64,000 nt of DNA, from contig JAYWIR010000004.1 of NCBI GenBank assembly GCA_036172245.1, forward strand, positions 1,178,001-1,242,000. Reading direction: 5' to 3'. The position numbers were made by a program, and so were the translations under genes. The stretch comes from Raillietiella orientalis (taxonomy: Eukaryota). This document shows positions 21,700-61,960 of this stretch, piece by piece. Every line of letters begins with the position of its first letter. The stretch's first letter is position 1. The notes under the pieces are model-generated. The model ran no database searches. It was not told the DNA's origin and saw only the letters and a program-made list of their open reading frames with translations.

Positions 21700-22650
21700 A
21701 TGGAGATGGAAGATGGGAGGGGGGGGGGAGCACCGTGCCACCTGGTGCCATCTCCACATCACGCGCAACTCCCAAGACCAAAGCATAAAAAGTCCATCTC
21801 GGCACGAATTACTGGACCTGCTGGGATTACCCAACAGCAAACTCCGCACCGTCGCACAAAGGTACACGGGTCTTTCAGCATACGCGGGTTCGAACCTCGC
21901 GTTTACTCTGCTGTTTGGTCAGCTGATAATGCGTGCCCAGGGAATGCCCTCACCTGTGCGTCGGAATATCGACAGAGCACGTTTCGAAGCAAAAGTTGCA
22001 CACCGTCGAGCGCATCCGGACGAGCGGGGGCCGCCTGTTGCTTGACCGTCACTCAGCAATAAATTTGATTCAGTTTGCTAACGGGAGTGTTCCCTGGAAC
22101 GGATACGCCTAGAGCAGGCGTGACGGGACAAACAGAAAAGTGTTTGCACATGCTAAATACATGCTTTTTCACTTTCTTGAAACGCACTTTTGGCGTCCTT
22201 GAGTGTTGCCCTGCCCGGCTTGCCCTCTTAGATTCCGCCGCACAATCGTGTGTGCGTGAGATTCAGGAATCTTCCAGAGGGAGACCGTTAGGATGTTGTT
22301 CTGAGGTCGCGCTGATCCGGAACCTTCGCCTCAGGGGCAGGTCCTCCCTTTCGTCTTCCCGTCTGCAACGGCTTGCGGATGTGGGGCGACACATAACGGT
22401 CTCCCAAGGGTGCCCTTGAGCGGAGGAAAGTAACGCCAGTCGCTGCATGCAAGAAAGACCCCCGACTTGAGTACGCTGCACACTCCGTGTTCGGGGGAGC
22501 CTGATGCAACTTGTGATGGCACGACGTGGTGCCAGACAACCAGCCAAGGTCGCAGAGCGGATTGCGGCACGAGCGAAAGAGGTCGCACATAGCGGGGAAT
22601 CCGCTGACCGTTGCTTGGCAACGCGGGCACCCAGATCAGAGCCCGCAGAA
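21700..22650 (-). mobile_element. Highly decayed C-terminal part (Zn knuckle/RLE region) of an RLE-type non-LTR retrotransposon
   Basis: Frame-shifted pieces SGVFLACSDWRYF (cf. G..RFADWRFIHRAR of NeSL/Utopia), SRCRREDEREDLP (cf. CRRC..ETL.H) and LWSWELRVMWRWH (cf. terminal I.WSR.IW..H) occur in the expected order. Confidence 0.4.
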
Positions 22651-23073
22651 CTGGATCGTTTCATCGATTTCTTAGCGACCGATCCAAAGATTATTCATGA
22701 CAATCCCCATTCCCGCCTAGGCACGTTGGATCTCGTTTCTGGTAGCTACTGAGAGAGCCTCCCTTCCCACTCTCGTCAAGCGCGAGGACGAGGAAACGGA
22801 AAAGAGCAGATTGCAAGATTTTGACGTCCTCCGAAAAGACCTGACGCCCCCCCCCCCCGCTGTCCCTCTCTCCCTCTCTTAAAACCGAAGTTTCATGCCG
22901 AGAACGTCGCTGGGAGAAGGGAGGAGAACGAAAAAAAGCGCGAGAAGCATACAAGCGACGGAGCAGCGCTCGAAGGCCGTCTAGAGGGCGCAAGAAGGGA
23001 GAGGGGGGAAGACATCCGCACGCGCACACGAAAGGACAAACAGACAAGCAAGCAGACGCTCCTGAGGACTCAC

Positions 23074-23180
23074 CTCTCTGTTGCTGGCGCGCGAAAGCTC
23101 GCGCAGCGGCTGCTTCACGCAGGCACGAAGGCTGCCGGTTGACCCACGCTCGCTGTGGAAGGGTGGACGCGACTACTCAG
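23074..23180 (-). promoter_or_regulatory. Putative non-coding first exon / CpG-rich promoter of Ig gene 1
   Basis: Perfect donor AG|GTGAGT at 23074/23073 inside a CpG-rich segment. A matching acceptor CCCCTTCGTGTTCCAG| lies at 19827/19826, 41 nt before the ATG. The exon's 5' boundary is approximate. Confidence 0.4.
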
Positions 23181-23879
23181 CGTTTGTGCTCCCCTTGCGC
23201 ACGCGCGCAGGTGGTGGAGATGCTGCTGCTGCACTTCCTCTCCGCCCACACTCTCTCCTCTCGCTCCCACCTCCCTCCTTGCGCTCTGGGAAGAGAGGCG
23301 GACCTTTGCACAACGGGCGAGAGTGCGCAGGCTGCCACCCATCGGGTCGCCGTCATGTTGTAAGAGACGCCTGCTCGAGCCACGAGGGATCCACGAGACT
23401 CCTTACGATAATGCAAAAAGGACGGGAGGGAGGGATCGAGCCAATCGGACTGCCTGCGAAGCGATGCAACTGTCTGGCCGCAGCGGGATCACTGATCAGC
23501 CTAAGGGAGGAAGGAGAAGACGGGGTGGGTGGGGAAAACCCTGCAGGTGCCCCGGAAGTTTCCATCGTTGCTAAATGAGACCATCAAGCAGGTGAGAGAA
23601 TGAGGAGGACACGAGGGGACAATCAGGGTCTCGAGAGGGAGGATGCAACGCCTGCCCCCGTACCCCACACGAGCGTCACCCACCCATAGATGGCTCCGAA
23701 CACGCATTCTTCCTGCTCGAATCCGTTTTCTGGAGGCAAAACGGGAGGAGAGTCGAAAGGATGGGATCTCATTCCTCGAACCCGAAGCATGTCCGAGCGT
23801 CAGCGGCGGACGGTGGAAGCGAGGGTCATCTGTGACGTGACCTCTGGTCTCCCTGTTTCGCGCCCCCCCAATGCGTATC

Positions 23880-24870
23880 CCGGGGCCACTTCCCGACCCT
23901 GGTTCCTCCCGGGCTCGGGGCAACTCCGTTCGTCGGCTGGGTGTTTGGTCCGATGTCTCCATTGCGCCGGGCAGTTGGCAAGGAAGACACCTCGCCGATG
24001 GATGAGTCGTGGAACCTCACGTGGCCTTGTACGCTCCTAGAATTCGCCTTCTAAAGAAAGCTCTCTGCCCCCGTCGTGTCAGAGGAATGTGGCCAGACAG
24101 AGCTCCTGCGAACGGGACGCCTCACGAGTGAACCTCTAGCTCTCTGGTCCAGTCTCCAGGAACCGCCTCTGGAATCCCTCTTGATCGGTAGCGATTGGCA
24201 AAGTCTCCTTCCCTTCTTCGACTGACCCTCCTGATTCCGAACGTTTCCTCTGAGCAGCATCCCTGAAAGGACAGGAATCGATCGGACCGCCCTCCATTGC
24301 GTGAACCCTCGCAAGGCCATGTCAAGGAGCTGCTGCGTTTCCGGACAGGGAAGACAAAAAACCATATGGGTACTTTTCACTGACCGAAAATGGGGGACGG
24401 AAGGATGGGGTGGTGAAATTCTAGAATGAGGATGCGCACTTAGGTATCCGCCGCCATCGTTCCCGGATGGAACGCAAATACCTGAGTATTGGCACCTGTG
24501 GCTGGGGGGCTCAGGTGTGCGCGCATTCGCTCGATCGGTTCCTTCGCTCGGAAAAATCCGGGAGCTCTCGGCAATAGGAGCGCACAGGTCACTCTGGTGG
24601 TAGTCAGCCACATGACCTGCCATCCTGAGCAACAGCGACCAGAGTTCCAAACCTCTCTCTTGAAGCTAGCAGTGACACGGACCGTATCTTCCGCTGACCG
24701 GATCCCGCAGTTTGGACGTCGAGACTCGCCGACGCATCCTCGCAGAAATGCGCATCTTCACGAGATTTTTTTTGTTGTTTACCGCACCCGTCGAAAAATA
24801 CTGGCGCAAGAATCGCTTTCTCGCGGGAAGACTGATTTGCATCTCGTCGCCCCGCGCCGGCGTAGGTGAT
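23880..24870 (-). mobile_element. Highly decayed reverse transcriptase region of an RLE-type non-LTR retrotransposon
   Basis: Frame-shifted pieces DRFLSFQGCCSEETF..RRREGDF..GIPEAVPGDW (cf. QKGFL.FDGC.EH.F..ARR..AFGSVPH) followed by RRGVFLANCP and GREVAPGYA (cf. RGVKQGCP; V..LAYADD). Confidence 0.4.
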
Positions 24871-32300: not shown

Positions 32301-34849
32301 GCTCCATTCATACGGACTATTTCTCTTACCGAATCCCAAGACGTGACTACAAAAAACATATTTGCTTCCCTTTTACTTTCAAAATAGCAGCAGTTCGGGG
32401 TAATCAGCAGTGATCTAATCACTGGAATTTCTAAATAGCATCGAGCACGGAAGGGAAAAGAAATTAGACCAGTAGGCACCTCGGCATACTGGCTAACTTT
32501 AAAACTACTCTCTTCAAAATCATCTTAATCAACACACATCTCAAAAATCTTCAGAAAGGTGAAACTAAGAGATAGTGAGGGTAAGCACATTAAAACTTAA
32601 CATTCCACATTTACTACAGTTTGGGTTCCCTCAGCTGACAAAACCAAATATAGAAGTCACATAAAGAAGTTTGGGAAATGAGAGATCATCAGCGGATGGA
32701 GAAACGTGCGTTTTTAAGCAAACTATGCAAAAATCAAACCAAGTTCTCTTCATTAGTGATCTGCAATAAAAAATTCAAACGATCGGGTATTTTTGAAAAC
32801 CGGACAGACCGAAATGAATGCAACCTGGGAAACTGCTTTTCCATAGAATGAATCAGCGTCTTTGGTTAATTATGTGGCGACGTGTGTTTTGGTGAGATGG
32901 GGGTGCGCTTTTTTTTCCTCCGATGGTTTGACTACGGCTCTTTGGTTCCAACGCGGCACGTTCGCAGGATGAAGAAAACTGCATTCGCGTATCCCGATCT
33001 TTTGGATAGATAGTAAGACGCCTATAAAACATCCTGAAAGTCATGCTCGTTTGTAGAAAGCCTTGCTGCTTTGGGAACGAGAACGGTTACTGCTTTCGGG
33101 GAAAATTGGTACCGGGATTGAAGTTGCATGGATCAAAGGGTAGTCTTGTATGCAACTTGTTTCCAAAAGCCCCGCTCACTTCACAACCTTAATTGGATTT
33201 CTCCCTTCCGAGTGATGACACCCATTTTCTTTCTCTGACAAAAACAACCACCGCTCGAAAAAAAGAGAAATGTCCATGCTAATCGGCCGACCATCTGAGG
33301 ATACGTTGCTTATTGATGCTTGCTACCATCATCAAGGAGAAAATGTCTCTCTCTCATTGAAGTCATTTTTTTGCTCTTTATGGGAAAAGAATGGGATCGA
33401 ACGATCCCATCTGTTCCTATTTTTGCACCGAAAGTAATCCCTATGGAAAGGCGGAGCATGTAAAGTGTAACCTCGATGTTTACTGGGAAACATGTCCCTA
33501 AAGGGGGAGGTGCACATAGGGAAATAGGACTTTGAAGGTCGCGATCACAGAAAAGGAAAAAAGGGGGGGAGAGGGAATGTTCTCTACGAAAGAAAGTTTT
33601 TGAGAGGTTGCGGAATCGACGCCTCATCGGATGAGAACGTCGCACTGGGAAACCAATATGCAGGCGTCCTGCGGCAGCAGAAAAAGACGACTGCAGTTGT
33701 CAACTCCGGGGCGTTTCACCGACTTGCAAGGGAAATTGGATTCGTACGTAAACTGAGGAGGGGGTTTCCCCTGGAAGCTGATGGCTTTGGGCACCCCCAG
33801 GATCCTTCATTTGGCGTCCACGCCTGCCGACGGCGTATTGAGTGCCCTGAGATATTCCCGGTGCGCGACCGCGAGCGAACCTTCACAAGTGAACGGGGAG
33901 AGAGGATGAGGATGACTGTGCGCTCGGGGAGTAGGGAGGGACGGTTTCTAAGTTTCAGCATTTTGCCGGAAGGATAGCACTTTTTGGTAGGGGGAAAAGG
34001 GCCAGTGAGCCCGCTCATGAATTAGGAAGATTTTTCTTTTCTCTCTACAGCCTCAGCCCCTTGAACAGAGCTTCACTTCCGCGCACGTCGATGCAGCACG
34101 AGGTGCAGCGGGGAGAGGTGAAGGCGTAGCAGCGACGAGGAATGGGGGGGGAGGGGCGTAGAAGCCCTTCCGGCCCTCCTCTTAGAGCAACCCTTCCTCC
34201 TCCTCCTCCTCGCTTCTTTTGCTTCTTTTTCCTGTCCTTCCTTTTGGCTGACGGTGATCCCGCCGGAAACGCTGGCTACAGCGACGTCGGCGACGTCCGG
34301 CTCGCGACCCGCGCCTCGTTTCCATGGAGAGGAACCTCCGTGCTCTTTCCTGGGGCTCCCGAATCCGGAATCGCCCACGCCATTCCTTCCGGGAGAGATT
34401 CCTGCAGCTTCCTGGAAATCCGACGCTTCTGCAACAGTGAACTGAATGCGAGTTCCCATTTTATTGGATGTTTTTTTCTTTCTTTCCGCCTTTCTTTCGG
34501 AACGAATGGGGAAGCGGAGGAGGAGGAGAAGAGGAGCTCCCCTCCTTCTTCTCCTCTCTCTATGCTCTTTCTCTGTCTCTCTCTTTTTTTTTTTTTCTTT
34601 TCTGGTGGCTGCTGCCTGCGGTTTCCAGCGAGCGCCGCTGCGAGAAACCTCTACTCCGGCGAAGACCCAAGCGGAGGGTGGGGCCTGCACTTCCGCCTGG
34701 CCATCCCCGAATCCATTTCCGTACCAAGAGAAAAAGGAGTTGACGTTCCTCCGGGAGGAGCGGACAGAACTGGTGGGAACTCGACCGCGTAACGGGACGG
34801 CTGCAAGGGCTGCTGCCTCCCGATCGTCTTGAGAGTCCCGCGAAGGCAG

Positions 34850-37800
34850 TCACATGTGCAGCACGAGGTCCTTCGCCAGACCCTCCTTCTTGCGTAGCTT
34901 CTGGAGAAACATTTCCCGATCTGGAGGGAAGGGTAGAGGAGGAGGGAGGGCACGTTTATTCCTGGGACTGCAACGGTCCTCTTGGTTACCTTCGGAGGTC
35001 TCCCTCTGCAGCCGGAATAGGAACATCATGGACACCGCGACGGCAACGAGGAGTATTCCTACAAACACCGCCTGCACGGCGCTGCCGGGGCCCTGGAAAC
35101 GGACCAAGGTCATTCTTGTCCCTTCTGCTAGTCTCCCCCTCTTCCTCCTTTCCCCTCCCTGAGATAAGGGTCGCGAGTCCTCCCTCGCGAACCCACCGCT
35201 GCTGTCGGGATCGATCTCGACCTGCTGGAGCGGAAGGGGGGAGGAAAGAGGAGGCCACTCTTGAAAGGAGCAGCCGGGGGCAGCCGAAAGCGGGACCAGG
35301 AGAGCGAGACAGCCCGGGAGCGATGAGTCCTCCTCCTTCTCCTCTCGCGGTCCTTGCTTCGGTCCCAGAAGAAGTTTTTCCCCATGCCTTGCCCTCTAAA
35401 GGCAGAGGGAGGCAGGGGAAATCTTCTCTTGTTTCCACAGGTCCGACCCTCAGGGACGCGGCAGCGCCAGGGCAATGGAGAGGAGAGGGTTCTCTCCATC
35501 GTGCCCAGTCCCCTGGGAACGCAGTGACCTCGACTGTGGTCCCCCTCGCTCCCGCCGGCGCTTAGTTCGGTTTAACTGGGTAGGTGATTTTGGGAGGTGG
35601 GGAGCCCCGGGGGTAGCGTGATGATCGGCATGATCGGTCGGCTCCCTAGAACCTGTGCTGAGGGCGGGCTCTCAGATTGCAAACGGAAGAACCTCCTTCG
35701 CTGCGCGGAGGGAGCGGCGGTCCCTTCCCGCTGCCAACGTGCTGCAAACCGCCTTTCTTCCCTCTGGCGAATCGTTCGACCCAGGGCCCAACTGCTTTCT
35801 CGATACTAAGGAACCCACACCTCTTCTTCTCGGATGCCTCCTGCCTTCCTGCCTACATGCGCCATCGACAAAGCGCGTGCTTCCCTTGCAAATCGGTTGC
35901 TAAGATGCGGATGCTAGAGCGGCGCCACTCGTACAAACGGATTCCGTTCTTCCCTACAGCCCCTTTCATGTGTGTCTCTGTGTGCACGCTTTTGCTGTTT
36001 TCGCTCCCTTCCTGAAGCTCCCTGCTCACGTGGACGCTACTTTACTACCCTTACCACCCTCCGTTCGTCAGAGAGACCGAGGGGACGGGACCCTTAGTAC
36101 TAGGTGGTACTTACAGTCTGCCTCTCACGAGGAGGATCGATCTTCTGAGACGCTACTTTCATTCCTTCTGTCCTGGGGTTCACTCGGAGGTACAGCTTGT
36201 GCTCGGGGAAAGTGGAAGGGCTGCTACCGCCTCTCGCCACGTGCTTCCATCCGGAACACATATAGGTGCCCGTGTCTTCCTTCCGTGCATCCTAAGAGGA
36301 ATACGGGAAGAAAGTTGATCCCAGTTTCGACTTTCTTTCATTTGAAAACAACAACAAGAAGATGGGAAACGTTCGAGTCACTGTACTCCGGAGACAGAAA
36401 AATGGAAGGGGGCCATTACGATAGTCTCTCCCTCCGGCAAACTGATTTGGGGCAAAGGGGAGACCGAAAGCGAATCTGCTGGATAATATGCACTCGAGGT
36501 GCAGCTGAACAAGAGTTTCCTCGTGAAAAAAGAAGAAAAAATGAGCTTTCCAAGCAAAGCTCGGAATCCAGGATTCCCAACAGCACAAGCATGAAGTTTT
36601 AAATGGCGCAGGTCACAGTAGAAAGGCCAAAGTCCCTCCTTGGGAAGTCTTGCAGTGGGAAGGAAGGAAAAAATCGGTTTCTGAAAGCAGTTTCTAATCT
36701 TTGATTCTTCTAATGAGATCTGCTTAAGCTCCATCCGGCCAACGAAAATATCAGCTCTCTTCTGTTGGTTCCGAAACTCTTAAAGCACATTACCAAGTCT
36801 GGTAGGGCATCATTCGAATTAACTGAAATATCCATCAAGCAAATCCTACGCATTTGCGTGTGACCAATCCGCGTGTGCTCGAAGCGTTCAGACTCTGATC
36901 TACCATACCTGAGAAGAGAGAATAATGGCCAGGACCGTTAAAGATTTCGTGACAGATGCAATCGGATACTCAGGAATTACCCCAAATCACAGTTTGATAT
37001 AATGAGTACTTTGGAAAGATTGAGTTCAATCTTGCCGATTTCTGGAGATGCACAAAAAGGTACCTCCACATTCGATCCGCAATACGATTCTGCAAATAAA
37101 CGTGAAAATAAGGAAGTTAGCCTTCAGGAACTCAATTTCTCCATTAGAAGATAAGTACAGGTAAAAAAAACATCATCAAGTTATGGAAATGTATACCTTG
37201 GGGTTATGTCTTGAACTCTTTCAAAACAAACACAAATGTCAAAAAATTCTGGGCTTCTCGAGATATTAGGAAAACCCATATCCAAAAGAATTACGTATAA
37301 CATGTAACAGCTACGATTTTTAGTTTTTGATAGTTTTGACAGTTTGCGATGGAAGAATACAATCGAGAAGTTTATCACGTTGAGATCTCTTCTTACAGAT
37401 TTCTGCGACAATTTCTAATGTACCAGTACTTTCAAGTTCAAAACAATCATTTGGAATACGTAATAGAATCAGTTTTATAACATCGTAGTGCCATTCTTGG
37501 GATATCTGATATTATTTTTGGATGGAGACAATGTAGCTTTACTGTAGCAATGGAATGTTAAGGAGTTTAATGTGGAAAATCGTTTTCGTTGATTTAAAAA
37601 TTGTGATTTTTTTTTTTTTATCTGAAGACATTCCACAATTCTATTCGACATGGAAAGAAGAAAAATCCAGAAAACACATCTTTCTGCGGTCTTACGATTT
37701 ATTTTATCCTTTTCTGGCATGGTCATCTGTAAATAACAAATCAGAATTAAAATGAGAGTTGGCTGAAAAAAACATAGAAGGTGAATCGAGTTAATCTTTT

Positions 37801-44299: not shown

Positions 44300-46700
44300 T
44301 GCTATGAGAATAGGGTAGAAGAATCACAAGCTTTTCATTGCAGGAATATAGGAATATTCTGTGGATGTCTATGAAGCGGAATCTTCCACAGATATCCCGA
44401 CATCTGTCCATATTAAAATCAGGAGGAGTGATCTTGTCTTCTCAGCCGACCTTACACCCTTCAGGGCAGACGGAGTCGCTTCCGTATCACACAAAACCGA
44501 AAATTTCTCCGAATGAAATTTCCTGCATTGGATAGAAGTCATTGGATTCAGAGCCTGCATTGTGTCATCGTCAGCATCCTCCTAAGGTTACGTACTAAGA
44601 GCATTCGAAAACAATCTTACTTTGGAAACCACCTTCAGCGTTGGTAGAGATGAGAATCGGTTTCCATAGGCAGTTTCACATCGCCTATATGAGACATACC
44701 TCTCTAGAAGATTCGATAGTGGATGAATATCAATTCGGTAATCTGCTCGCGGCAGACGCGATCGTTCTCGTATGACGGAGTTTTCGAGAAAAATTACACT
44801 CCACAAACTAAGTTTCGCCAGGCTGGATGACCATCGCAGGACATATGCATCGCATCTGCCGGGTTAACCAGTGCATTCGGAGCAGTTCTACAGGACATAT
44901 CCCTACGGGAGAGCGTAAAGCGAACCAGGGAGCGAATTTTCCAGCATATCATGAAGGGCTTATACACAAATGCCTAAACTTTGCTGCAGGTGGAGTAGCA
45001 AGCCACAAGAGACATTCGGATTCTCATCGGGAGTGATGTCCCCTGTCTATTCAACTTAGCTATGAAGTCCATCCTTCTTAAGACGAGGGAATCATTTGGA
45101 GGAGACTCTTGTAGCCTACGAAGATGATCTGCTCTTGACAGGGAAATTAGAAATCGGACCTTGTGGAAGCCTGCACTGCCTCGATGATGATCCTGGCTAA
45201 AAAACTGGACTACCTATTGATTGATTTAAATAAATGCACGTGGTTATCCTTCGGAAGGACAACACTAAGGTGAGTAACAAAAACAACTTTCAGTGTCGAC
45301 AAAGGCAGCATCCCGGTACTGGATCACGGGGAAGCATACGAACATCTAGGGGAAACATTTGAGATGTTTGGTAAACTGTGATGTAAATCAGCCTACCAAC
45401 GAGTCAATCATGATGGATTGGAGATTGTCTCTATGGCAAGAACTGGATGTCATAAGAATCTTCCTTCTCGACCTAGTGCACCAGCAGAGGCTGGGAATAT
45501 TCAGGAAATCATGTTGGACTTTCCTTAGCAACATTAGATAAGTCGTCAAAACTGCCTTCAACCTACCAAATAGGGAGGCGAATATCCAACAGACCAGAAG
45601 GATGCCTCGGCTTACCCAATCTATCTTACGAGACTGATGCCTCTCAATAGATAGTTGCTTGAGATACTGAACTCGCTAGATCTAAAGATGCAAGAAGCAT
45701 CTTCCAAAACTTGGCGATCGGCGGAAAGGAGATGACGATGATCATCCCAAATGGATGAAAATTTGAAGAAATTCCTGGCCCAGGCGATCGATGGAAAACG
45801 GAACAGACCCAGCAGAGACGTCGGCAGCATCTGGACCGCAGGCAGTCGAGCGTCCGGCTGAGATAAAATGAAGTGGGCGTTTGAAAATGCAGCACCAAAA
45901 ATTACATTTGGGAGTACCACGTTGGGCACACACGCGAGGAAGAAAGGTCCACTGTTCTGCGGACGTTCGGACGCCAGGTAGCATAGGCAGCCCTTACCAC
46001 AAGTCAGTTCTTGGATCAGGAGAAAATCATTTCCGACATCGGAAGGCCTGGTGCTTACGGGTATTTTCTTCTCTATGCCTAACAGCGGGGATTTGCAAAC
46101 TATGGACTAATTCTACTAAATCTTTTGCACGTGAGGAACATAGTCCACTGGAGATAGCTCCGCTCTCATATGCAGAAGAGGTATCGTGTGGGAAGAATCC
46201 CTAGGACATGTCCTCAATCACTGCTCCAAAAGGGAGACCTTGATCAACGCACGACATGACCAACCAGTAACCCAGACCCAGAGGGTTGCCCCTGATACAC
46301 AGTTGCGAGTTGGCAGCCTCCAATGAGCTTCTTTCGGGAACAGACTCGAAGCTGGATCCAGATCCGGTGCTCCAGGGCGGAGGGAAGGTGATTGTACTGA
46401 ATCTCAGGTGACCCTTTGAGTACTCAGCAAACGACACTTCGAAGGGTAAGATCGAAGGAGTGCGAGTATCAAGGGCTGTCCATCACCTCACCTCTAAAGG
46501 AGTGCCCACACAAGCAGGAGCATTCATCGTAGGTCGCCCGGGATCTTGGGATCCGGAAGTGGATGAAGAGATTGGGAGAATCCAAAATTCTTAAGAAACC
46601 GCAAGAATGCAATCAAAAAAGAAATTGTCTTCGTACACCCTGTATTCCTGGGATTCCTTGGAAACCTCGAAGGAATGGATCATTTCCCTCAGCGAAGGAA
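44300..46700 (+). mobile_element. Decayed NeSL/Utopia-like RLE non-LTR retrotransposon (RT + CCHC + PD-D/ExK endonuclease)
   Basis: In order: SPCLFNLAM (~45040), LVAYEDDLLL (~45108), IPVLDHGEAYEHLG (~45310), LSLWQELDVIRIFL (~45425; cf. LAPWQK.DA.RTF), CRRGIVWEESLGHVLNHCSKRETLINARHD (46171-46260), KLDPDPVLQGGGKVIVLNLR*PFE (~46350-46420), AFIVGRPGSWDP (~46520-46555). Many stops and frameshifts. Confidence 0.85.
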
Positions 46701-46849
46701 ATCTCAAGAATCACAACTCCGCCACGAGGACTTGGACAGATTGGGGAAGACGGGAACGAAGGAAGATGCAGAAGGCGAAGAAGGGAAGGAAAAGAGTGGG
46801 AATCCGAGGATGAGCAGAGGCTGGAGGAAAGCTAACCTCCCATCCCCGC

Positions 46850-48230
46850 CACTGCTGCTACTGTTTGCTTTTTCCCTTTTTCTTCCTGACGAAGAGGGAT
46901 TTTTGGAAATGGACAAAGACTTTGTTCTGAAAAGAGCCGGCGTTCCCGAAGAGCGACGCCCAACACCCTCATATCTGCCGGAACAGGGGTTTGCCCCCCC
47001 CCCCTCCCCCCGAGCGATCCCGACCGAGTCGCGAGCCGCTGGCTACGCCCGCGCAGCATCATCGATGGCTGATATGAGGATGGCTGCTGCACGGGAACGA
47101 ACGAAGCAAACCCCTTCCTTCCCGTGCTACCGGTTTCCTCCCCCTTCCTTATCGCGGGCTTCCCCGGTCGCCCCTGAGGAAACAGCCCGAGACGGGTGGC
47201 TGCGAGGTAACCTGGAAGAACCTGTGCGCGCGTCCGGAGTCTGCGAAGAAATCCCCACCCCTCCCTCTCGTCTCCCTTAAATGCACAAAAGGTTTCGTAC
47301 GAGGCGCCCCCCCCCCTCACCCCACCTCCATCTTCTCTGTGATCTCTCACGCGGGTTTTTCTACCTGCTTCCACATCCGACGACGCTCCCTGAAGATGTG
47401 TGTTCCGTATCGAGAAAAATTTGCGTGCCCGAACGGGTTGAAGAGGGGTTCGAAGGGGGGCTCTTCTTATTTCGTCCCTCTCCAGGAAATGGTTGCCGGG
47501 ACGCAGCCGGATTCTGGAGGAAGCCTCGAAGTCCGTCCTCTGTCCAGAAGCCTCGAGCACCTGGCGGCGCGACTCCTCCCGATAGCCTTCCGTTCCTCCT
47601 GAGAACCATCTGAGGGCAGAGGTCCTCCCCTTCCCTCCTCCCAACCTTTCCTGGGGCTCTCGCCTCTACCCATTGCAGAAGTCTCTGACCTTCAGCTGAC
47701 CACGCCCGCACCGGCGTGCAGAACCCCGAGAGTTCTCCCACAAGCCCGCGGATCCTCCCCTTCGCGGGGCACCCGGCTTTCAGATTCCGGGAGGACTTCC
47801 TCTAAGGACTAGTTTTGCGGGATGGAAAGCAGGAAGCGGGGGAGAGGGGGTGCCAAAGTCAAGCTCCCCTCATCCTCCTCCAGAAACCAACGCATCTTCC
47901 CTCCAAAACCATTTCGCGGTTCCTCCCGGAACCGATCTCAGAGATTCCCCTCCGATTTTCTCCCCCGCTCCGAGGCTCCCGAAGGATGTGCTGCCCTTAA
48001 CTTGAGCGGAATCCTTCTCAAGCCGAGAAGCAGACAGAGAGGGGGGGGGGATTATGGGGGAGTCACGTGACCGCCGAAGTCTGCGGAAGAGACGCGAGGG
48101 AATTGGCCGCCGTCTGCGCTCACCCTTGCGTCGCAACGCGTGCGCTTCCCTCGCAACAGCTGGACGCGCGCGGCGTTGCCGACTGCCTAGTCTTAATCGA
48201 AACATATGTTGTTTCACGGCTGCCAGTCAC
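46850..48230. promoter_or_regulatory. GC/CpG-rich island with a palindromic E-box and a candidate minus-strand non-coding first exon
   Basis: Sharp GC/CpG enrichment against AT-rich flanks, GTCACGTGAC at 48062-48071, and minus-strand donor AAGG|GTGAGC at 48124/48123. No recognisable protein in any frame. Confidence 0.35.
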
Positions 48231-51200: not shown

Positions 51201-51730
51201 ATAAATCCTCCCGTGTCTGAAACGTTTTGATGCAGATAATAGTAAACCATATTTTGGACTGACTGGACAAATGGATCAATTGAAAACTCATTCCAGACTA
51301 ACTATGAAAATGCATAGAAAGCTTTATGCTAGACCATTTTTCAGCATACATGAGGGTATTTAACGAGAGAAAGATCGTGCTTATCGCATTAAAAGAAAAA
51401 AGCGACAAGTCGTTTGCATCACGTATCAGAATAGACTGTTTTTCCAAAGTGCGAAAGCGAGCAACTCCTAGGGATGAAATTCCGCTTCTTCCTTACTGGA
51501 ATGCCTGCCTCTGGCCTAGTAGTACAATTCTTTCAATTTTTTTCAGCACGCATTTTTCCGCTTGTTGGACCCTGGTATTTCTCATTAGGTTGACGTGTCC
51601 CACTTCGTTTCACCTTTCCGAAACAATCGATCTTGGAGTCCTATTTTCGAAATGGTAGTCAGTGCAGTGCGACTGGTAATTCTGTTGTTGCGTTTGTCGA
51701 CTTTTGCGTGCCCGTGCGAGGTAAGACGCG

Positions 51731-54077
51731 ATGAACGAGTACGGGAGCAACACGTTGCTGCTAACGAACCTTCCTGATTGCATTACAGAAAGAAAGATCA
51801 AAGATGTTTTTCAGGAAATCGTGCCAGTGCTTCGATGCTATCTAACTCCGAAGTATGGTATGTATGGGACTGTTTGCGTGAAAGGCATGCATCGAGTTGG
51901 GAAGTGGGGATTTGTGTCCGAACGTAAGCGTGCATTCGGTATGTGTTTGCGAATGGTGTTGGCGTTCGGCATTGCGCTTTTCTGTTTCGTTTTTGCCACA
52001 GCTAAGTTTGATTTTCCTTCTTTCCTTTTGTTAGAGGGGAGAAAGTTGCGGGTGGCCTACGTAGCATTCCGCTGCAACGAAGATGCGCTGAAAGCCAAGC
52101 AGAATTGCAGTAATCTGCTAATTGATGGGAGAAAGATCATTGCAAAATTTGCTAGAAGACATGGGAAGGAATGCTCCCCGAAGAAGAATTTGAAGATCAG
52201 AGTTCACCCCCCAGCACAGCCACGTAAACCGTTGTTGAAAGCCAAAGTTTGGAATAAGAAAGCGAGGCTGATATTGAGAAATATTTCTTTTAAGGTAGGT
52301 TTTCTTGAAGGTAATTTGCAATCAACGAGTTTGTCAGTGTACAAAGGAAGATGTGCAAAACTTGCTTGCTCCCTTTGGCAAGGTGTTGGAAGTGAATTTG
52401 CTCCACCGGGATGATGGTAGCATGGTAGGCTGTGGCTTTGTGCAAATGTGCAAAGTACCAGAAGCTAGCAGAGCTCTGAAAGCTTTGCATGGTACTGTTT
52501 TCAAAGGCCGTCTGCTGGCTGTGGACTGGGCTGTCCCCCAATCCAGTTTCTTATCGTCAACACAGACGAGTGCAGATGAAACTCTGAAAGTAGACTTGCC
52601 ACAGGCATCAAAGCCAAGTAGTGGAAGGTTGATCTCAAGCAGCGAGGAGCACTCTGAGGCTGAAACTAGTAGCACTCTGAAAGAATGTGCTGAAGATGAA
52701 TCCGATGATTCTGATGATAAAGAGGACACCGGTGGGACACTGCAACCAATGCAGACAAAACCGTGAGTTGCGTTTTTCGTGGTTTTGAATTTCTTATGAA
52801 AGGTGCATATTTAAGTTTAGGAAGTCTGAAGATGTACACAAAGGCTGCACCGTCTTTGTTCGTAATGTACATCCCGATACGAGTGCAGAGCAGTTGTGTG
52901 GTTTGATGGTTCAGTTTGGTGCTGTGAAGTATGCTCTACCAGTTATTGATTCGGTGACGGAACATCCTCGAGGCACTGCCTTTGTTCAGTTCCTGGTGAG
53001 GTTGCCCGACCATGTTTCCTTTGAAGGTGGTCTACATCAGGGTGTCCTGGATGTTTTAGAACAAAGAAGATGCCGAAGTCTGCTTGATGGCAACTGAGGA
53101 TGAACTGATGCTAAATGGCAACGTTCTGGAAGTGTTGCCAGCACTAAGCAGGGAGGAAGTCCAGAGGAAGTTGACGAATTCCTCGAAACCGAAGATTGGC
53201 AAAGACAAGCGCAACCTGTACCTGGTGCGAGAAGGCTGTACGTATCGCTATGTCGGTTGGGTGTGGAAATCTGCTTTTGGCTGCTTCAGTGGTTCGTGCG
53301 AATACGCAAGCTGCGAAAGGAGTATCCGCTCATGATCTCCAGTTGCGTGCTCATCTGGAAATTTGGAAACGCCAGAAATTGCGAAACCTGCACATTTTTA
53401 TTTCCGATTGCAGACTGTGCATTCATAATTTGCCAGCGACGATGACGGACCGCGAACTGAAAGCGTTGTTTTTGCAAAGTGCCCCTTCCGGAGCGAGGAT
53501 CACGGAAGCTCGTGTCATGAGGAGTGGGAGCGGCCCAAGTGGACCGTGTTTGGGTGCATCTCGCGGATACGGCTTCGTTGCATTTGCCCAACACGAGCAT
53601 GCACTGTGCGCCCTTCGCTCTCTGAATAACAACCCGAGCGTGTTCAGTGAGGCTCGGGTAAGCAGCCGTGTGACCGCCGTTTCGTTTGACTTAGCGCTCG
53701 AACCTCAGAGACCGATCGTGGAGTTTTCCCTGGAGAACCGTAGCAAATTACTCGCCCGTCAGCGACGGCTGGAGAAGAGCAGATTGGCGCAGAAGCTGGT
53801 TGGACCGAAGGATGCCAAAATGCCAGAGAAAAGAGGCGGTCCTGCGTCAGGGCAGTTTCGAAAGTTGAAAAGATTCCAGTCGAAGGCCGGGAAGAGTTCG
53901 CTTCCGAGGAAAGCGGACCTAGCAACCGGATCGCATACCGGTTACTTGACCACTGCTGGAGGTCCGAAAACTCTTCCGTCGCACGTAGGTCCGAAAATCC
54001 GTCACCACGCTCGGAAGTCATCGCAGACGAGCCAAGCGAAAAGAAAGCATTCGTTTCGGAAAGGCAATAAAAGATGA
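51731..54077 (+). CDS. RBM28: RNA-binding protein 28 (Nop4 family, 4 RRMs). Exons 51731-51857, 52035-52294, 52338-52762, 52821-52995, 53060-53237, 53290-53657, 53709-54077
   Basis: KKARLILRNISFK, GCGFVQM..GRLLAVDWAVP, TVFVRNV..TEHPRGTAFVQF, DKRNLYLVREG, KLRNLHIFISDCRLCIHNLP, SRGYGFVAFAQHEHALCALRSLNNNP, RPIVEFSLENR, GPKIRH. GT-AG introns. Confidence 0.95.
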
Positions 54078-56592
54078 TGGCATCCGTGTGTTTTTGCGGG
54101 AACGCGGTTCCCGGGTGCGACGGGGGTTATCACCCGGGTACGCCCGGGGCGTTTATTTATAAACTCTACATGCGTGGTACGAGGCCCCACCACGGCCGTA
54201 AACACAGGACCTGTCGGGACACCGGGACGCAGCCCGGGGGTGCGAGCGGGCGTTGCAGTGCTTCCGTTTTGATGCTTGCAGCTGCCGTGCGCGTGGAAAG
54301 TCTCGGGAAGTGGACGAAGGGCACAGTTTCATCACGGATGGGGCATCTTTTTCCCTTTGCGGCGTATTTGTTAAGGTTGCGGATGCTTTGGCTTGAAATC
54401 GCACGGTTCTTGATGCTTGCAGCAGAGGCTGCTTTGCTTTCGTCGACTGTCTTCGACCTATTGCGAAGTTTTTTCACGTTTCGTTCGTGTAAGAGGAGAT
54501 ATCCGAAGGCTGATTTTCCTGTAAAGTCGCGAGATTGGCCATCCATCCAAGAAATGTGGACCGTTTCTTTGCATGCGTGCGTATCTTGGACGAAGACGCC
54601 AGGGATAAATAAATGAATGGACGACTTGAAAGTTGGGTTCCGTGTGCTGCGTCGCGAAGGCGCGGGATTGTGTGTTCCCACCGTTGCTTGGTTTCTCCTT
54701 TGGACTTTTGGAAGTACCACTTGCTTAGAATAATAATTAACGAGTTACACTATTAGAAAGTCACGATGGAATGAGGCTTCGCCAGAGTGGATCCTTCATG
54801 AGGAGTGCTTCCTTCATCCTCCGCGACGCATACAAATCACTTGAAAGGTTTCCGTCTCTAAATAGCCTCCAAATCGAACGGTGTGTCTAAGGAAACCGAG
54901 ATCCCTTGCCTACCTTGAGCACCGCAGCATCTCTTCGTGGTATGGAGTTGGAGCTTATCGTCAACGTGACTTCTCCGCGTGGTTACTGCTAACATGGAAG
55001 TCCAAGCCAATTCTTTGGAAAACGAATCCTGGAATCGGGAGCGGTTTTTGAAAGACTTTGTTCACGGTCGCCGACTTCCCATTAAATGGCGCTGACACCT
55101 GGTGTGAAAGACTGGTATCCCTCGCAAATGGCATTCTCATCTAGGTTTTACCATGAATTCCATACTTGATTGAGAATACTGGAAGTTCTCCTCCATTCTT
55201 CGGGATATGGAGAAAAGTTTGGAAGCAATGTCTCTGAATAGGAAGAATGTGCGACGTGCCGTCGCTAGATGAAATGGTCGAGAAGTTACTTTCAGGATGA
55301 GGAACATTTTGAACATGGAAGGCGAAGACGGCGCTTCCTCCAATGCTTCTGCCAACTCGGCGTTCCAACCACCACCACGTAAGAAAACGTTGCAGCAGAA
55401 GGCAAAAAGCAAAAGCGCTTACGGACTGTGCAACTGTTGAGGTTGATGGCCAGTGGTTGCATGTCTGCTGGCCATGATGCTTGCGAAGATTTGGAGATTT
55501 TGCGTGGCTGTTTGTGGAATGGATAACTTTCACGGAGATCGTGTGATTCGAATTCCACTGTGCGTCACAAAACACAAATTTGCGGATGTGTCATGAATTG
55601 CCAGGAGACGGCATGCATCATCGATAGGTAGCCAACTTTGGGCGAGAGTACTGTACACTTCTTGGTGATGAAATATCTGCTACCCGATGAGTACATTTGC
55701 ATCGTGCACATTTGCGACGTGTGTCCGAAATGAAAGCGTTCCTCCAAGAAACCATTCTCCAGTAGCAAAGTGAAATCAGGGTTAGCAAATTCCCGTGCTA
55801 TTACAAACAGTATAGAACTTGAGTTTATCGGTTGATTAGGAATACGAGCACTTGGTGTGCCGGCATCCTAAAGCAGGGTAACCACACTATCAAGGATTTC
55901 AGTTCTTTGCAATGCACAGCGTTCTGATAGACATCGAGATTTTCCTCTTGTAAAGGAAGATGGGCAAGTTCATGAGCTTGTTTTGTTTCATTGCCTTTCC
56001 AGCGGAAGAGAGCCATTTCTGATGGAACATTCGTTTTCATGCCGTTCGGTCGTGATTTTTGCTGTTGGACGAGCGTGATGCTGGGACTGGATGTTGTCTC
56101 TTTTGGGGGTTGAGCTAATCGTCGGTTTGTTTGTAGGCTGAATGTAATAACAAGTCACACGGGAAGCCATGCAAGGAATCGGATAATTGTTCGTCAATTT
56201 CAAATGTGTGATGTTCCATGCTTACTGCTGCATATGCGAAATTACGATTACGTGGTTGGGGTTCGCATGCATCGCGTGCACTTGGTTGTACGGGTGGGGT
56301 TATACAACACGGTTGCGTTTGCAAGCTCACCGAGAATGTGCCTCTGCGCGCGTGGTTTTGTTCGTACACTGTACAGCATTATTTCGTGAATAATTACAAC
56401 AGTGCTAGTTATCAGGGACAAAGGAAGACCAAAAGTTGCATTTTTTCGTATTCATCTTTTTGCATGTGCAAGCTGGGAGACTTGTTTTGCAAATGCTGCG
56501 TGAAACTATGAATTGACTTGCAATTCCAGATCATCATGTTTCTTAATCTTTGCGTGCTGAAAGGTTGATTTTCAAATCCAAATCGGCATCTA

Positions 56593-57652
56593 ATGGGAGA
56601 TCTATCGGTGCCTGCCAACGTGAGCATCCCTTTGGCGGATGAAGATGTGCAAGGTAATGATTAGTTGCTGATTGTCTAGAAGAGTTTTCTCGATGAGAAG
56701 TGAGTTCCTCCTGGATGCATTCGTGATTTCGGATTCACGTTGACTAATGAGATGCAGCAGTGGGTTTTTTGACCAGACCTCCTATAGTATGTGCTTGCAT
56801 GCTGTACTTCTGATGGAATTTTCCTTTCCTTAACAACAGTTTCTACCACTTTCCACGCAAACCTAGTTTGCTTTTGGAACCATTGCATTAGAACTTAGCA
56901 TTTGTCATCTTAGTATTCCATGAAGCATCAGAAATTTCCAAGCTGTCTCCAGTCGGATGTTTTTTTCCTTTTTTTTTCTTTTCAATTTCTTTTTCCCTTA
57001 TCTGTTAAATCAAATTTGTTGTTACTAGCTGAAATCCATTCAAGGGGAAACAATTTCTGTCGACTCTCTAGAGACAGGAACTTGTGCTTTGACAGTGTCA
57101 ATTTTCTAGAAGACACTGAAAGTGAGCTCATATCCCTCAGTGTGCATCCAGGCGATGGAATGAGCATGGAATCTTTGTCTAGCTCATCCCTGACTGAAAA
57201 CAGCAGCACGTGTCAGTGTGAGTACAATACAGTGCATCTACCTATAATGTGCTTGTTTTTTCTCTTGAAATGAAGTGCCAGTGCATGCTGTATGTTAAAA
57301 CAGAGCTATCCAGAATTTTGCAGAAATCTGGCCTCATCAAAGAATAACCACGTAGATTTGTTGTTTCCTTGTTAGATGCAGATCAAGACATCAGTGCTGA
57401 TGAACATGAAGAAAAGGTGCGCTTCATTTCGCAAGTACTGGAGTTACAGAAAACTTTGGATGGTCTTGTTCAAAAGTATCCATTTCTATCCTGTAAAACT
57501 GTTCTTTTGCAGATTTATCTCAGAGAGTAGATAATGTAAGGGAAGAAAATCTGAAACTCAAGTCAGAGAATCAAATACTTGGACAGTACATTGCCAACTT
57601 GATGTCTGCTTCCTCTGTCTTTCAGTCCACTTCAGTCCATACCAAAAAGTAA
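56593..57652 (+). CDS. SCOC: Short coiled-coil protein (SCOC/UNC-69). Exons 56593-56653, 57029-57217, 57376-57462, 57513-57652
   Basis: [14 protein letters not shown] and [58 protein letters not shown], the conserved SCOC coiled coil. Exon 2 boundaries are less certain. Confidence 0.93.
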
Positions 57653-58594
57653 AAGAGATTTCCGTAATGAATTGCTAACTCATTTCTGTTCACTTATTAG
57701 ACTCTCTTTGAAGCGTTAAGATGCAATTGTATCTCCAAGTTGCTGTCAGTTATGAAGCTAAGCAATGAAGATGAAGTTTCAGCTGTGCAAAATATCCTAC
57801 ATCAAAGATTGTTTTCATTTGAATAAACTGTTGCAGGAAGCTCAGCATTTTGTTGCGATGGCTAGATGTTGTTCCTTTAAGCATTCCTTTTGGTGTTGTA
57901 ATTCTTGCATTATTGTCCTTGAAAATTTTTGAAAGCGAAGGTATTGGGAACAGACAATTGTCTGGTAGTAGCATAATTCAAACTGGGCATTACATTGCCA
58001 TAATTTAAGTTGCCACACAACAACATCGGTACACGAGCATGCGAATAAGAGTTGGTCCTATTTGGTTATTCTTGTTCTTAGGGACCATAAGAGAATATGT
58101 GGGCTAATCAACAGTGCTTCTACAGGTTGCTGAAGTCTTTTATTGCAGGGAACAATGTGATCACACAACAAACAGTTACAAATGAAGATGGTCTCCCTCA
58201 AGTCAAACTACGTTTTTCGATTCCTGCTTCTGCTTTTTGAACATTAATACCCAACTCGACCTCGAAATCGCTGACGGTTATCAAGCTGAAAAAGAAGTTC
58301 CACATCGCGGAATCTTCTCATCTACCAAGGACCGCTTGCATAGATAGAAAGTATTATATAGGGCATAGCATTCTTTGGGAACCGAAGGATGGCGCTCCTT
58401 TAAGCATTGCTTTGGTGTTTTCTTTACCTGGTGACAAAATTATTCATCAAAGCCATGAAAACTCTGGGAAATGCTCGACCTCCTCAAACAAAGTTCCTGC
58501 TTCCAAGTCTTCTCAACTTACGTTAAGATGCAAAAAAAAATTGGTAAAAATTGGGGTTTCTCCATCTTACCACTTGGGCGCAGTCCGTCTTTAG

Positions 58595-58606
58595 CAGACA
58601 CCTTTT
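58595..58606 (+). repeat. Target-site duplication copy (CAGACACCTTTT); second copy at 59713-59724
   Basis: An identical 12-mer flanks both ends of the element. Its four T's merge with the element's poly(A) tail on this side. Confidence 0.85.
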
Positions 58607-58771
58607 TTTTTTTTTTTTTTTTAAAGGCCAGTAGCGACCCCACGAGGAGATCGTTACTATTGGCCTAGGACGATGGTAATCCTTGGGTTCTTCTTTTTCT
58701 TCTGTCTTCGCTGTTTTCCTTCCAGCTTTTTTTTTTAAGAGTTTTCTTTTTTTTGGTTCGCTAAGTACCTC

Positions 58772-59510
58772 AGAGCCGGTCGCGTGCCTCGCGGCGCGCG
58801 TGGCTCTTTTTAAACATTAACACACTGTTTTGTTTCCACGCCTGTCCGCGGCAACCCGCAGGGGGGGGCGTGTAATTCTTCAGTGTAATATTCTTCAGGA
58901 TAGGGGGCACCCCGGGATGGGGTCCGCCCTATTGAATCCAGGAAGGGCTCGGAGTCCGTTCCTCTCACGCTTGGGGAGGGATCCCCCCGGACGGGGGGGA
59001 TCTCACCTCCCACCCTGGTTGTCTCCGAAGGGGAACCCCGAAGGGAATCTCTCCTTCCTCATTCTCTCCGGAGGGACACCCCCCCTTGCGGGGTGGTGGT
59101 CCTCTCCATTTCAACTTCTCCGAAGGGAACCCGGAAAGGATCCGCCTCTAGGAATTTCTTCTCCGGAGGGAACCCGCAAGGGAACCGCTCCTTTATTCAC
59201 TCCTCTGAAGACAACCCCCACAGGGGTGCTTCCGAAACTCAGAAGGGGCGCTGCAGCTTCCCGCAGGGAATCGCTCTCGCTTAGCTTCTTTCCTTTGTAC
59301 ACACTCTGTGAAGAGGCAACGACTCGGAGGGTCCCCCCAACAGGGGGAGGGTCCTTTCCTTTGAACGACTGGAGAGGTGCCCGTGAGGGCTCCTGCTCCA
59401 TCTTGAAACCGGAGGCGGTCCCCCCGGTGACGGGGGTCCACTCTCCTTTGCACACAGGAGGGGGAACTCCCCACTCCTTTATTCCTGGGAGGACCCGAAG
59501 GTCGACTCCC
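58772..59510 (-). repeat. Array of ~16 short GC-rich hairpins, many with a shared basal stem and 5' bulge
   Basis: Examples: GGGAG-TC-GACC-TTCG-GGTC-CTCCC (59510-59487), TGGAG-C-AGGAGCCC-TCAC-GGGCACCT-CTCCA (59400-59370), GGAG-C-GGTTCCC-TTGC-GGGTTCC-CTCC (59191-59165), ATAGGG-C-GGACCCC-ATCCC-GGGGTGCC-CCCTAT (58932-58900). Confidence 0.85.
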
Positions 59511-59646
59511 ATTGTTCCGGCCTTCATCGGGAGGCCGCCGGCTTTATCCACCGCCGGGGCCACGCCCGAATGTCTCGGCCAACCAGCGCCGTTGCAGGAG
59601 AAACTCGGAACCCAAACGACGCAATGGCGTCAAGTTATCTGCCGAA

Positions 59647-59701
59647 GTATTCGAACCCGCGACGCATGGTGCCACGCGCGGAAGCCTTAACCACAAAGCC
59701 T
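59647..59701 (-). promoter_or_regulatory. RNA polymerase III type-2 internal promoter (A-box and B-box)
   Basis: A-box-like AGGCTTTGTGG(TTAAGGC) at 59701-59691 and B-box GGTTCGAATAC at 59657-59647, with tRNA-like spacing. Confidence 0.75.
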
Positions 59702-60249
59702 CCGACGCGGGCCAGACACCTTTTGGTGTCGTATCGTAACCCATCACAAGCCCTTGTTTTAGGGTGCTGAAAGTCTTCATATGACTGGGGCATGCCCACG
59801 CCGAATTGTACAACTATGTACTGAAAATGCTCGTTTGGATATTCTTCTGAACGTTTAAATGCTGGCTCCCGACTGAATTACCGCGGCAGCCCAAGTTCAT
59901 TCTTCATGCCTGCAGGCACATACTGTTCAGACAATGCAAACGTATACGGAAAACCTACAAATTCGAGCTTTCCTGATTTGTCCATATTCTGCACTTTGGA
60001 TCACACTTTCCACAGGGAAGTTTTTCTCCCGTCTTCGGTTACGATTGCAGTACAAGAGAAGAAACGGTTTCCTTCTGGTGCGTTACTCAGGAAAAGACTG
60101 CAGGAAGTTTTCGAGCAGTTGTATCTACCATTCTGAAACTCAAGTGGCTACAGATAAAATGGAGTCTGCGTAGGAATTAATTGTAGAAGAATCCACCTAC
60201 ACCAATGTTGAATAGCTCAGTTTTTTTGGCTGTTTTGGCAATGATTGCT

Positions 60250-61960
60250 GCTTCCATGTAACCATGGGAAACATCATCCAAAGCTCTACAAGGGTGCCAG
60301 CGCTAAAAGTATGCAAAGAGATTTTGACAGCTCTGCCAAGCTCGTATCTGGGCACGCTAGGCGTGTCGGCCTATGCAGACAATCTTCTGCTGCTGCTTCC
60401 CGGGTCCACCCGAGCTTCTGCTCTCGAGTTCTTCGAGCTGCTCAGCCGCGGGACAGACCTGGAGGAGAACAGGGCGAAGTCGTCGATGATGACAATTGGA
60501 TGAACGTGAGCTGGACGGCCTGACTGGATCCGCTTGAGGATCCCCACGGGCAGTACTTTAAGTAACTTGGCGTTCCGTTGGGGGACTTCCGCGTAGCAAT
60601 AGCCTGGTCCGATCATCTCCAAAAGGTGGAGTTGGCGATCGGCCCGTTTCGGGACGACAAGTTTTACTTGCTGGAACGGGCCGCGGTGTGGAACGCTTTC
60701 GTGGCCCTCCTGCTTCGCCCCCTACTTTTTTTTCGCCGCGCCCCACTCCAAATCAAGAAGAGGACAAAGGTCCTCCTGAGAAAAGCCCTGTAGGGCACAC
60801 AGATGTCCCACGTCCGTCTTAAAGACTTGTGCTCTCCACGCAGGGACGGTAGACTAGGCCTCCTGACGTTGGAGCACATGCAGAGACAGCTCCAAATTGG
60901 CAAACTCGACCTTGTGTCGACATACTGGGCAGCGCCATGGTGCGCCCCTACACGCCTCCTCGCCAGTAGGGCAACCAGCTGCAACGGATTGACCTCGATC
61001 CTTGTGGCTAACGACCACAGTCTGAACCATTGTTGTTTTCAGCTGCGTGACTTGGTTGCCCTGGTGAGAGAAAATAAGTGGATCTCCTGTCTCCTCTCGA
61101 ACTGGACAACCTGGCTTCAGGAGTCAGTTTCCGCGCGGACTAAGATCAACGGCTCAAACGATGTGGACTTCTCCTGCCTCCGTAGAGGCAGGTACTATGG
61201 ACACCCCCTGCAGAAGATCGTTTCCAACCAACAGAAACTTCCGTGGGCTTCATTTACTCTCCTTGCCCCAGTGCTGCCCGAGCTAGAGAACCCTAGGGAC
61301 AGCCAGGAATAGGCATCGTGGGAAGTGTACTGCATCATAGGAGGCAGGAAAAAACTCTTGAATGCGTGGACTACTCGGGGGTCAGCGGACGCTACAACCC
61401 CGAGTTCCCGCCTAAAGGACTTGTGCGCTGGGGCGAGCTGCTCGGCATACCCCCAGAGGAAGTGAAGTGGCCCCCAGCGCGTTGCGACAATGGTTGCTCC
61501 TCCTTGGATTGGCAGAAGACGGAGTTGCTAGAGTTACATTGGGGACTCCTTTGCAGAGCATACCTCTCCCACTGAACATTAGGGAGTGCGGATGCCAATT
61601 GTGCAGGCTGCGGTGAAAGGGAAACCTTCCCGCACCTGATCATCGATCCCGCACCCGAAAAACATTTTCCGTCAATTCCTGATGCGGGACGCTTTGCCAG
61701 CAGCTGCGTGTGTAGCAGTTCTCTGCAGCATACGCGGAATCCTGGACAAATGGTATGCGTCGATGAGAGGCTGAAGTAGCCGGAATGCCATTCGCTGGCA
61801 GCCATCTTAATGGAGAAGGCTTCACTATGGCTCCAGCTACGCACACTACGACCGGCACTTGTCCGCATCCAAACTCGGATGCAGAGGACCCCTCGCGGAG
61901 AACTGATTCCTTGCCTGCACTCCCCTCCCTGGGAGACATTGCCCTCCCCTTTATTTTTTT
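60250..61960 (+). mobile_element. 5'-truncated, decayed L1/Tx1-type LINE ORF2 (RT C-terminal half + Zn knuckle)
   Basis: VSAYADNLLLL (YADD motif), FK*LGV (FKYLG, ~60558), LCSPRRDGRLGL (P...GGLG), LHWGLLCRA, and CAGCGERETFPHLIID (C..C....ET..H, ~61600-61650). Multiple stops. Confidence 0.8.

Follow-up and report, generated by a model that had tools for sequence, protein, structure and literature searches.

At positions 58772–59510 of the window (the whole 64,000-nt stretch of DNA analysed here, to which all positions refer), GC content reaches ~60% in a neighbourhood of 37–45% GC, and a preliminary description had recognised in this island an array of bulged hairpins. The locus raises the question of what the array belongs to and whether its hairpins act as RNA. 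Its surroundings account for the designed-looking RNA array: a poly(A) tail and a duplicated target site, read on the other strand, point to the body of a mobile element. In our assessment it quite probably forms the core of a non-LTR retroposon of ~1.1 kb (minus strand, 58603–59712), an element that is poly(A)-tailed and non-autonomous and has a SINE-like layout. We infer more tentatively, as one possibility, that the hairpins function in the retroposon RNA. The window also identifies the host as an animal, based on an RBM28-like gene with short introns (51725–54074), whose best relatives are from crayfish, millipede and ticks (41–51% identity), a TAF7 exon (10990–11250), whose best relatives are from insects (70–78% identity), and a PROPPIN exon (9821–10048). 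Judging from these sequences, the host is most likely an arthropod to which nothing in the protein collection is very closely related.

Folding, bulges and relatedness of the hairpin units

When pairs were limited to a span of at most 50 nt, positions 58772–59570 folded at −340.3 kcal/mol on the plus strand and −333.6 kcal/mol on the minus strand, compared with means of −271.3 and −268.1 kcal/mol for dinucleotide shuffles (z −5.9 and −5.6), and 0/100 shuffles were as stable on either strand. For the span originally described, 58772–59510, the corresponding z-scores were −5.3 (plus) and −6.6 (minus). Unrestricted minimum free energies of the array were −349.2 kcal/mol on the plus strand (z −3.83) and −344.8 kcal/mol on the minus strand (z −4.58; 20 shuffles each), and both strands fold equally well. 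Since no shuffle in 100 matches the stability of the array at the 50-nt span, the hairpins of the preliminary description can be taken as real. They are also not a general property of GC-rich DNA in the window, considering that the eight GC-richest other 740-nt segments gave z-scores of −1.58 to +2.0 in a comparison where the array scored −4.95; the array thus folds better than GC-rich controls, contrary to one of the outcomes that had been named as refuting.

The array (58772–59511, minus strand) forms the 740-nt core of the element and comprises ~16–18 local hairpins. A fold limited to a span of 60 nt divided the minus strand from 59511 to 58772 into 18 top-level domains, and 13–15 domains lie at −10 kcal/mol or below. 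As shuffles also contain ~11 domains of this stability, what is unusual is the stability and architecture of the hairpins rather than their number. Known RNA or protein families gave no match. Rfam 15 returned 0 matches at the gathering threshold across the whole window (the best sub-threshold match, NrsZ, had 19.1 bits compared with a threshold of 76.9), and a 289-aa frame through the array had no protein relatives and no Pfam family.

The architecture is seen when the array is read on the minus strand, where the loops (UUCG, GCAA, UCAC, UUGC and UGUG), the purine-rich linkers and the 5′ bulge all appear. Approximately 10 hairpins have a purine-rich basal helix of 4–6 bp, a 5′ bulge of 1–3 nt, an upper stem of a C-run against a G-run and a loop of 4–5 nt. 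Among 15 minus-strand units that we delimited by hand, 12 begin with a 4–6-bp basal helix, after which 1–3 bases are left unpaired, all of them on the 5′ strand, before the stem continues. A count that is independent of how units are delimited found 11 pure 5′ bulges of 1–3 nt after a 4–6-bp helix on the minus strand (two of these helices share one unit) and a single 3′ bulge, in accordance with the "about ten" bulged hairpins reported earlier. Dinucleotide shuffles contained a mean of 1.8 such 5′-bulged helices and at most 7, with 0/150 reaching 11. The position of the bulge on the 5′ side of the sense strand, 11 to 1, argues for common descent of the units.

In the MS2 operator and the iron-responsive element, to which the hairpins had been likened, the stem likewise has a bulge on one side, with an upper stem and a small loop above it. 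The present array has this arrangement in ~10 repeats. There is no sequence or model match to an Rfam family, and both the bulge base and the loop differ between units. The likeness is one of shape only.

Several observations bear on how closely the units are related. As read from the individual unit folds, the basal stem is GGAG/CTCC in 6/11 bulged units, and most upper stems simply pair a C-run with a G-run. In three cases, adjacent stretches spaced 43–46 nt apart share 74–87% identity, and a block of two units is repeated ~95 nt away at 74% identity. Periodicity across the array is weak (lag 43, z 2.3), and Tandem Repeats Finder detected no array at 58772–59510, its sole report in this part of the window being the T20 run at 58603–58622. 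As MAFFT aligned the units in poor agreement with their structure, we used a covariance model seeded with two units (U7 and U8). In a search of 2.5 kb, this model found further minus-strand units at E-values of 0.001 to 0.2. When the whole window was searched, the seven best matches were all in the array, and the five non-seed array matches (14.4–19.2 bits) scored higher than the best match outside the array (13.8 bits). As a model of two units retrieves others, the units form a family in sequence and in structure. They had been described as "conserved in structure, not sequence"; the shared structure stands, but the second half of the phrase was overstated, given the recurring GGAG/CTCC stem and the relatives that the model finds.

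For changes that affect both sides of a stem, we used the model-fitted alignment and kept 12/35 rows, leaving out every plus-strand row, those that lay beyond the element and five minus-strand rows with partial matches. The long units 59446–59411 and 59011–58974 are absent from these 12 rows, as the model aligned them incompletely. In the 12 rows, 98% of cells are paired and 7/9 model pairs show a double-sided change, with 12 such cells; shuffling the 3′ partners gave 84.6% paired cells and 1.9 double-sided cells, and 0/1000 shuffles reached the observed values. All 35 rows together gave 97.5% paired cells and 37 double-sided cells, which 0/500 shuffles reached, and slid controls of this alignment were 52–78% paired. 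Both double-sided counts lean towards structure, as the alignment was itself fitted to structure.

The array lies in a poly(A)-tailed unit with a target-site duplication

The array is contained in a unit of ~1,110 nt on the minus strand (58603–59712; ~1,090 nt without the tail), which starts at a defined 5′ end, finishes in A20 and is flanked by a target-site duplication of 12 nt. In the sense direction, the unit begins with a 5′ region (59512–59712) of 63% GC, with a CpG observed/expected ratio of 1.31 and longer hairpins, including one of −28.2 kcal/mol at 59712–59671. The array follows, and then a 3′ module (58623–58771) made of an A-rich stretch and, directly before the tail, a terminal hairpin of about −19 kcal/mol (58625–58666, minus strand). 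The 3′ end from 58771 to 58603 is 49% A, with internal A8 and A10 runs. The poly(A) tail (58603–58622) is a T20 run on the plus strand, reads as A16–A20 on the sense strand and was reported by Tandem Repeats Finder with a period of 1, 20 copies and 100% matches.

The left copy of the duplication, CAGACACCTTTT, is located at 58595–58606, where its last four T overlap the T run, and the right copy is a direct repeat of it at 59713–59724. Within the 64-kb window, this 12-mer has just two occurrences, which start at 58595 and 59713, and none on the other strand; the T20 run lies immediately on the inner side of the left one. A poly(A)-tailed unit between direct duplications is the hallmark of LINE-mediated retroposition (target-primed reverse transcription), and these features support reading the unit as a retroposon. 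An early suggestion that the array could load LINE proteins therefore fits in its context, as the array does lie in a unit that has both a poly(A) tail and a 12-nt duplication. Open reading frames across the unit had no Pfam match, and blastn (word size 9) found no second copy in the window. As an aside, the restored empty site would contain the palindrome GACACCTTTTGGTGTC (59715–59730), with perfect 6-bp arms, a TTTT loop and −8.7 kcal/mol, and it was the loop that the element entered.

Copies of the unit are found elsewhere. Two public runs, X1 and X2, contain part of the window stretch, and their contigs come from samples other than the genome of the window. Within the region compared (56500–61500), X1 has a single contig of 955 nt, which covers 58747–59697 only, without flanks, and carries 15 mismatches and 8 gap letters; it ends at 58747 within the A-rich 3′ module. 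X2 has 180 pieces over 56500–61500, with identities of 99% or more (n = 11), 95–99% (n = 16), 90–95% (n = 57) and below 90% (n = 96). Their depth, which is contig depth and not copy number, is concentrated on 58671–59839 and on a second repeat at 60341–60841, while the unique flanks mostly have a depth of 0 to 2. On the 3′ module (58623–58771), X2 depth is 2.4–11.3, lower than on the body. An X1 unit without its flanks and many diverged X2 pieces suggest that the element is a dispersed, multi-copy repeat family. Considering that X1 and X2 both lose cover near 59700, the copies share a 5′ end, which argues against a randomly 5′-truncated LINE. Within the array, X2 joints skip 78, 178, 111, 78 and 129 nt, in some cases with 23–29 other letters at the junction; the copies thus seem to differ in which units they contain, although several of the joints are short-sided and can be false or derive from other repeats. 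Exact 22–23-mers of the element had 0 matches in metagenome, genome and viral contig collections.

We also considered whether the element has a tRNA-derived head, which was suspected from a box-A-like 11-mer (59684–59694) and a box-B-like motif (59647–59657) in the 5′ region. This candidate was unsupported. ARAGORN predicted 0 tRNA genes in the window, Rfam gave no tRNA, 5S or 7SL match at E-values up to 10 (for the head alone or for 58000–60500), and the box-B pattern is at chance frequency, with 14 occurrences in the window at one mismatch compared with 10.4 expected. What had been taken for a D-arm is a long perfect hairpin, the first of the 5′ region, and the two-unit model scored it as unit-like (59676–59708, minus strand; model R1, 13.5 bits, with E-values of 0.035 in 2.5 kb and 0.89 in the whole window). 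On this score, the head may be assembled from modules like the array units. The sense strand contains no TTTT, but an argument for Pol III read-through from this was dropped, as 38% of shuffles also lack it (P about 0.38).

Relation to known non-autonomous elements

The present element shares with SINEs a layout of head, body and tail, probably interspersed copies and a lack of autonomy, including what would be dependence on a partner LINE. As described for SINEBase, SINEs are shorter than 1 kb (less than 700 bp in the general definition), with consensus lengths of 75–662 nt without the tail (PMC3531059). Unlike these, the element is ~1,090 nt without its tail, and the 740-nt bulged-hairpin core alone exceeds any SINE consensus in that range (PMC3531059). 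The same description requires of a head that it match tRNA, 5S rRNA or 7SL RNA at 60% identity or more across a stretch of 60 nt or longer, and treats box A/B motifs as an indication only (PMC3531059). In another difference from SINEs, no tRNA, 5S or 7SL head was detected here by ARAGORN or Rfam, which is a separate measure from the 60%-identity comparison. A precedent for the body is CHRS, reported there as a quasi-oligomeric SINE with a degenerate ~20-nt motif repeated more than 10 times (PMC3531059), as the body of the present element is also formed from a degenerate repeated motif.

The layout also recalls the GC-rich VNTR core of SVA and LAVA. SVA, LAVA, PVA and FVA are described as hominoid-specific, L1-mobilised composites with central GC-rich units of 30–50 bp, built from Alu-like and SINE-R or L1 modules, and in LAVA it is the central array that sets how efficiently the element is mobilised (abstract of PMC4432496). 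Like them, the present element is non-autonomous and poly(A)-tailed, has target-site duplications and a GC-rich repeat core, and would be mobilised by a LINE. Unit number varies between SVA/LAVA copies; here, the spacings are 43–46 nt at 60% GC, and the joints suggest such variation. The differences are in the parts: the host is arthropod-like, the flanking modules are unrelated (no 7SL/Alu match in Rfam), and the units, unlike the 30–50-bp arrays, are too diverged for Tandem Repeats Finder and only weakly periodic. Furthermore, each unit of the present element is a bulged hairpin, a feature that does not appear in the abstract on SVA and LAVA (PMC4432496). As the layout is shared and the modules are not, the element works like the group without being a member of it.

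The element is of note for combining a length of ~1.1 kb, the lack of a recognisable tRNA, 5S or 7SL head and a 740-nt core of bulged hairpins. Among the results listed by a full-text literature search, we found no description of an arthropod retroposon with a bulged-hairpin body; the family may already be catalogued in Repbase or Dfam.

Possible roles of the hairpins and features of the neighbourhood

If the hairpins are necessary for mobilisation, the element would offer a tractable invertebrate model for the role of structured or repetitive cores in non-autonomous retroposons; if they are unnecessary, it is an ordinary repeat. The preliminary description held that changes in the array are compensated, unlike in a decaying minisatellite. 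Compared with the X1 contig, the window copy has 22 differences in total. The X1 copy folds at −376.6 kcal/mol on the plus strand and −389.2 kcal/mol on the minus strand, and the window copy at −374.1 and −371.2 kcal/mol. Random placement of 22 differences on the window background reached the stability of X1 in 1/200 and 0/200 simulations, but we dropped this as evidence for compensation because it is confounded by direction: in the reverse simulation, random changes on the X1 background gave the stability of the window copy in 51/200 (plus) and 119/200 (minus) cases, so the window copy is an ordinary derivative of X1. On the simplest reading, X1 is near the source sequence of the family, and decay of the window copy after its insertion has been neutral. 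There is thus no evidence of compensation between these two copies. What stands of the earlier claim is the double-sided changes among units, as counted in a structure-fitted alignment, and what falls is its extension to differences from copy to copy, which fit neutral decay.

Of the differences between the window copy and X1, 8/22 are clustered in one array unit at 59326–59359. In the window copy, this unit has the 9-mer GGAGGGTCC on both sides, which is not an inverted pair, and from a hand reading the X1 contig would restore a GGAG...CTCC hairpin at this position. The change looks like unit replacement or mis-registration rather than point mutation.

Wobble pairs did not distinguish the strands. 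All pairs common to the folds of both strands are Watson-Crick (119/119), and strand-specific G-T pairs number 19 on the plus strand and 15 on the minus strand, which shows no strand preference; an assignment of the functional strand from wobble pairs was dropped for this reason. As wobble pairs have no strand preference, the pairing may be maintained at the DNA level. Taken with the structure-fitted covariation counts, the lack of a wobble bias makes a role at the RNA level no more than a possibility.

A tentative proposal, which we regard as possible, would account for the element as follows. Tandem duplication of a bulged-hairpin unit of ~43–46 nt would have produced the body. RNA of the element, in the minus-strand sense, would be copied into new sites by the endonuclease and reverse transcriptase of a LINE, with priming from a T-rich nick (...ACCTTTT) that pairs with the poly(A) tail. 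The lineage of active source copies would keep its pairing, with the hairpins acting in cis on the RNA, in its stability or in its assembly with LINE proteins, and inserted copies such as the one in the window would then decay neutrally. A stronger version is unlikely: ten or more bulged GGAG/CTCC hairpins would have evolved independently of SVA and LAVA in an arthropod retroposon family, with compensatory change in the active source lineage, and would serve as a multivalent loading platform for the RNA-binding proteins of the partner LINE, in effect a natural tandem "aptamer array" on which the efficiency of mobilisation depends.

The main competing explanation accepts the same mobile element and denies its hairpins a role in RNA. 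They would have arisen incidentally when a palindromic GC-rich unit was duplicated in tandem, and template switching in quasi-palindromes, or conversion between units, would keep or restore the pairing in the DNA itself. We consider this nearly as likely as the tentative proposal above, and several of the results are consistent with it: the equal folding of both strands, the 119 shared pairs that are all Watson-Crick, the balance of strand-specific wobbles (19 and 15), the fit of copy differences to neutral decay and the upper stems that are mostly plain C-runs against G-runs. A symmetric palindrome process leaves the one-sided bulge (11 to 1) unexplained, although inheritance from one ancestor does explain it. 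The X1 copy is also 12.6 kcal/mol more stable on its sense strand than on the other, which points away from a DNA-level process, but this difference is within the spread of shuffles.

The remaining explanations concern the identity of the unit. If it belonged to a family of processed retro-pseudogenes from a structured host non-coding RNA, with copies dead on arrival, the target-site duplication and poly(A) tail would fit equally well, as would the defined 5′ end common to the copies and the highly structured nature of the whole unit. This is improbable, considering that no Rfam family was found at the gathering threshold (with chance-level matches only at E-values up to 10), that the X2 pieces vary both in identity (from 99% to less than 90%) and in their number of units, a pattern expected more of a family that propagates itself, and that an internal A-rich module and a 3′ module make up a composite layout. 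It is more improbable still that the unit is a 5′-truncated copy of an autonomous LINE, with the array in its 3′ untranslated region. LINE insertions also bear a target-site duplication and poly(A), and a second dispersed repeat is only 600 nt away, but the X1 contig and X2 cover both stop near the same 5′ boundary (59697–59712) with no run-on into coding sequence, the open reading frames of the unit have neither a Pfam match nor protein relatives, and the neighbouring repeat has no similarity to the unit. The least probable is a host RNA gene in place, acting as a multivalent protein scaffold, a decoy or a small-RNA precursor as in the preliminary description. The excess of hairpins and their recurrent bulged architecture are real and would suit such a gene. 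It is disfavoured by the insertion hallmarks and dispersed copies, by the resemblance of the window copy to a decayed copy and by the lack of a match to a known RNA family, and we rule against a free-standing RNA gene, as the array is probably the body of a dispersed repeat on the opposite strand.

For the retroposon that we favour, no candidate partner LINE was found, the neighbouring repeat at 60.3–61.9 kb being without a Pfam or PDB match. This second dispersed repeat (60341–60841, perhaps 60300–61950) has an X2 depth of 16–33 with many variants. On the plus strand, ...AYADNLLLL... can be read by eye near 60369, as can a Cys/His-rich stretch near 61580–61650. Based on the YADN motif and the Cys/His residues it may be a LINE ORF2 remnant, a lead for which Pfam and PDB sequence searches were negative.

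Other features of the window are of minor interest. Three tracts (18000–24700, 34000–36600 and 46500–47700) have 58–66% GC and long overlapping open frames on both strands, with no Pfam match and no hairpin excess. At 56960–56994, a low-complexity sequence is followed by T runs, and X2 depth there is 251.9; X1 has three tiny low-complexity pieces at the same position in addition to its 955-nt contig. This stretch is probably one of the simple repeats that many genomes share.
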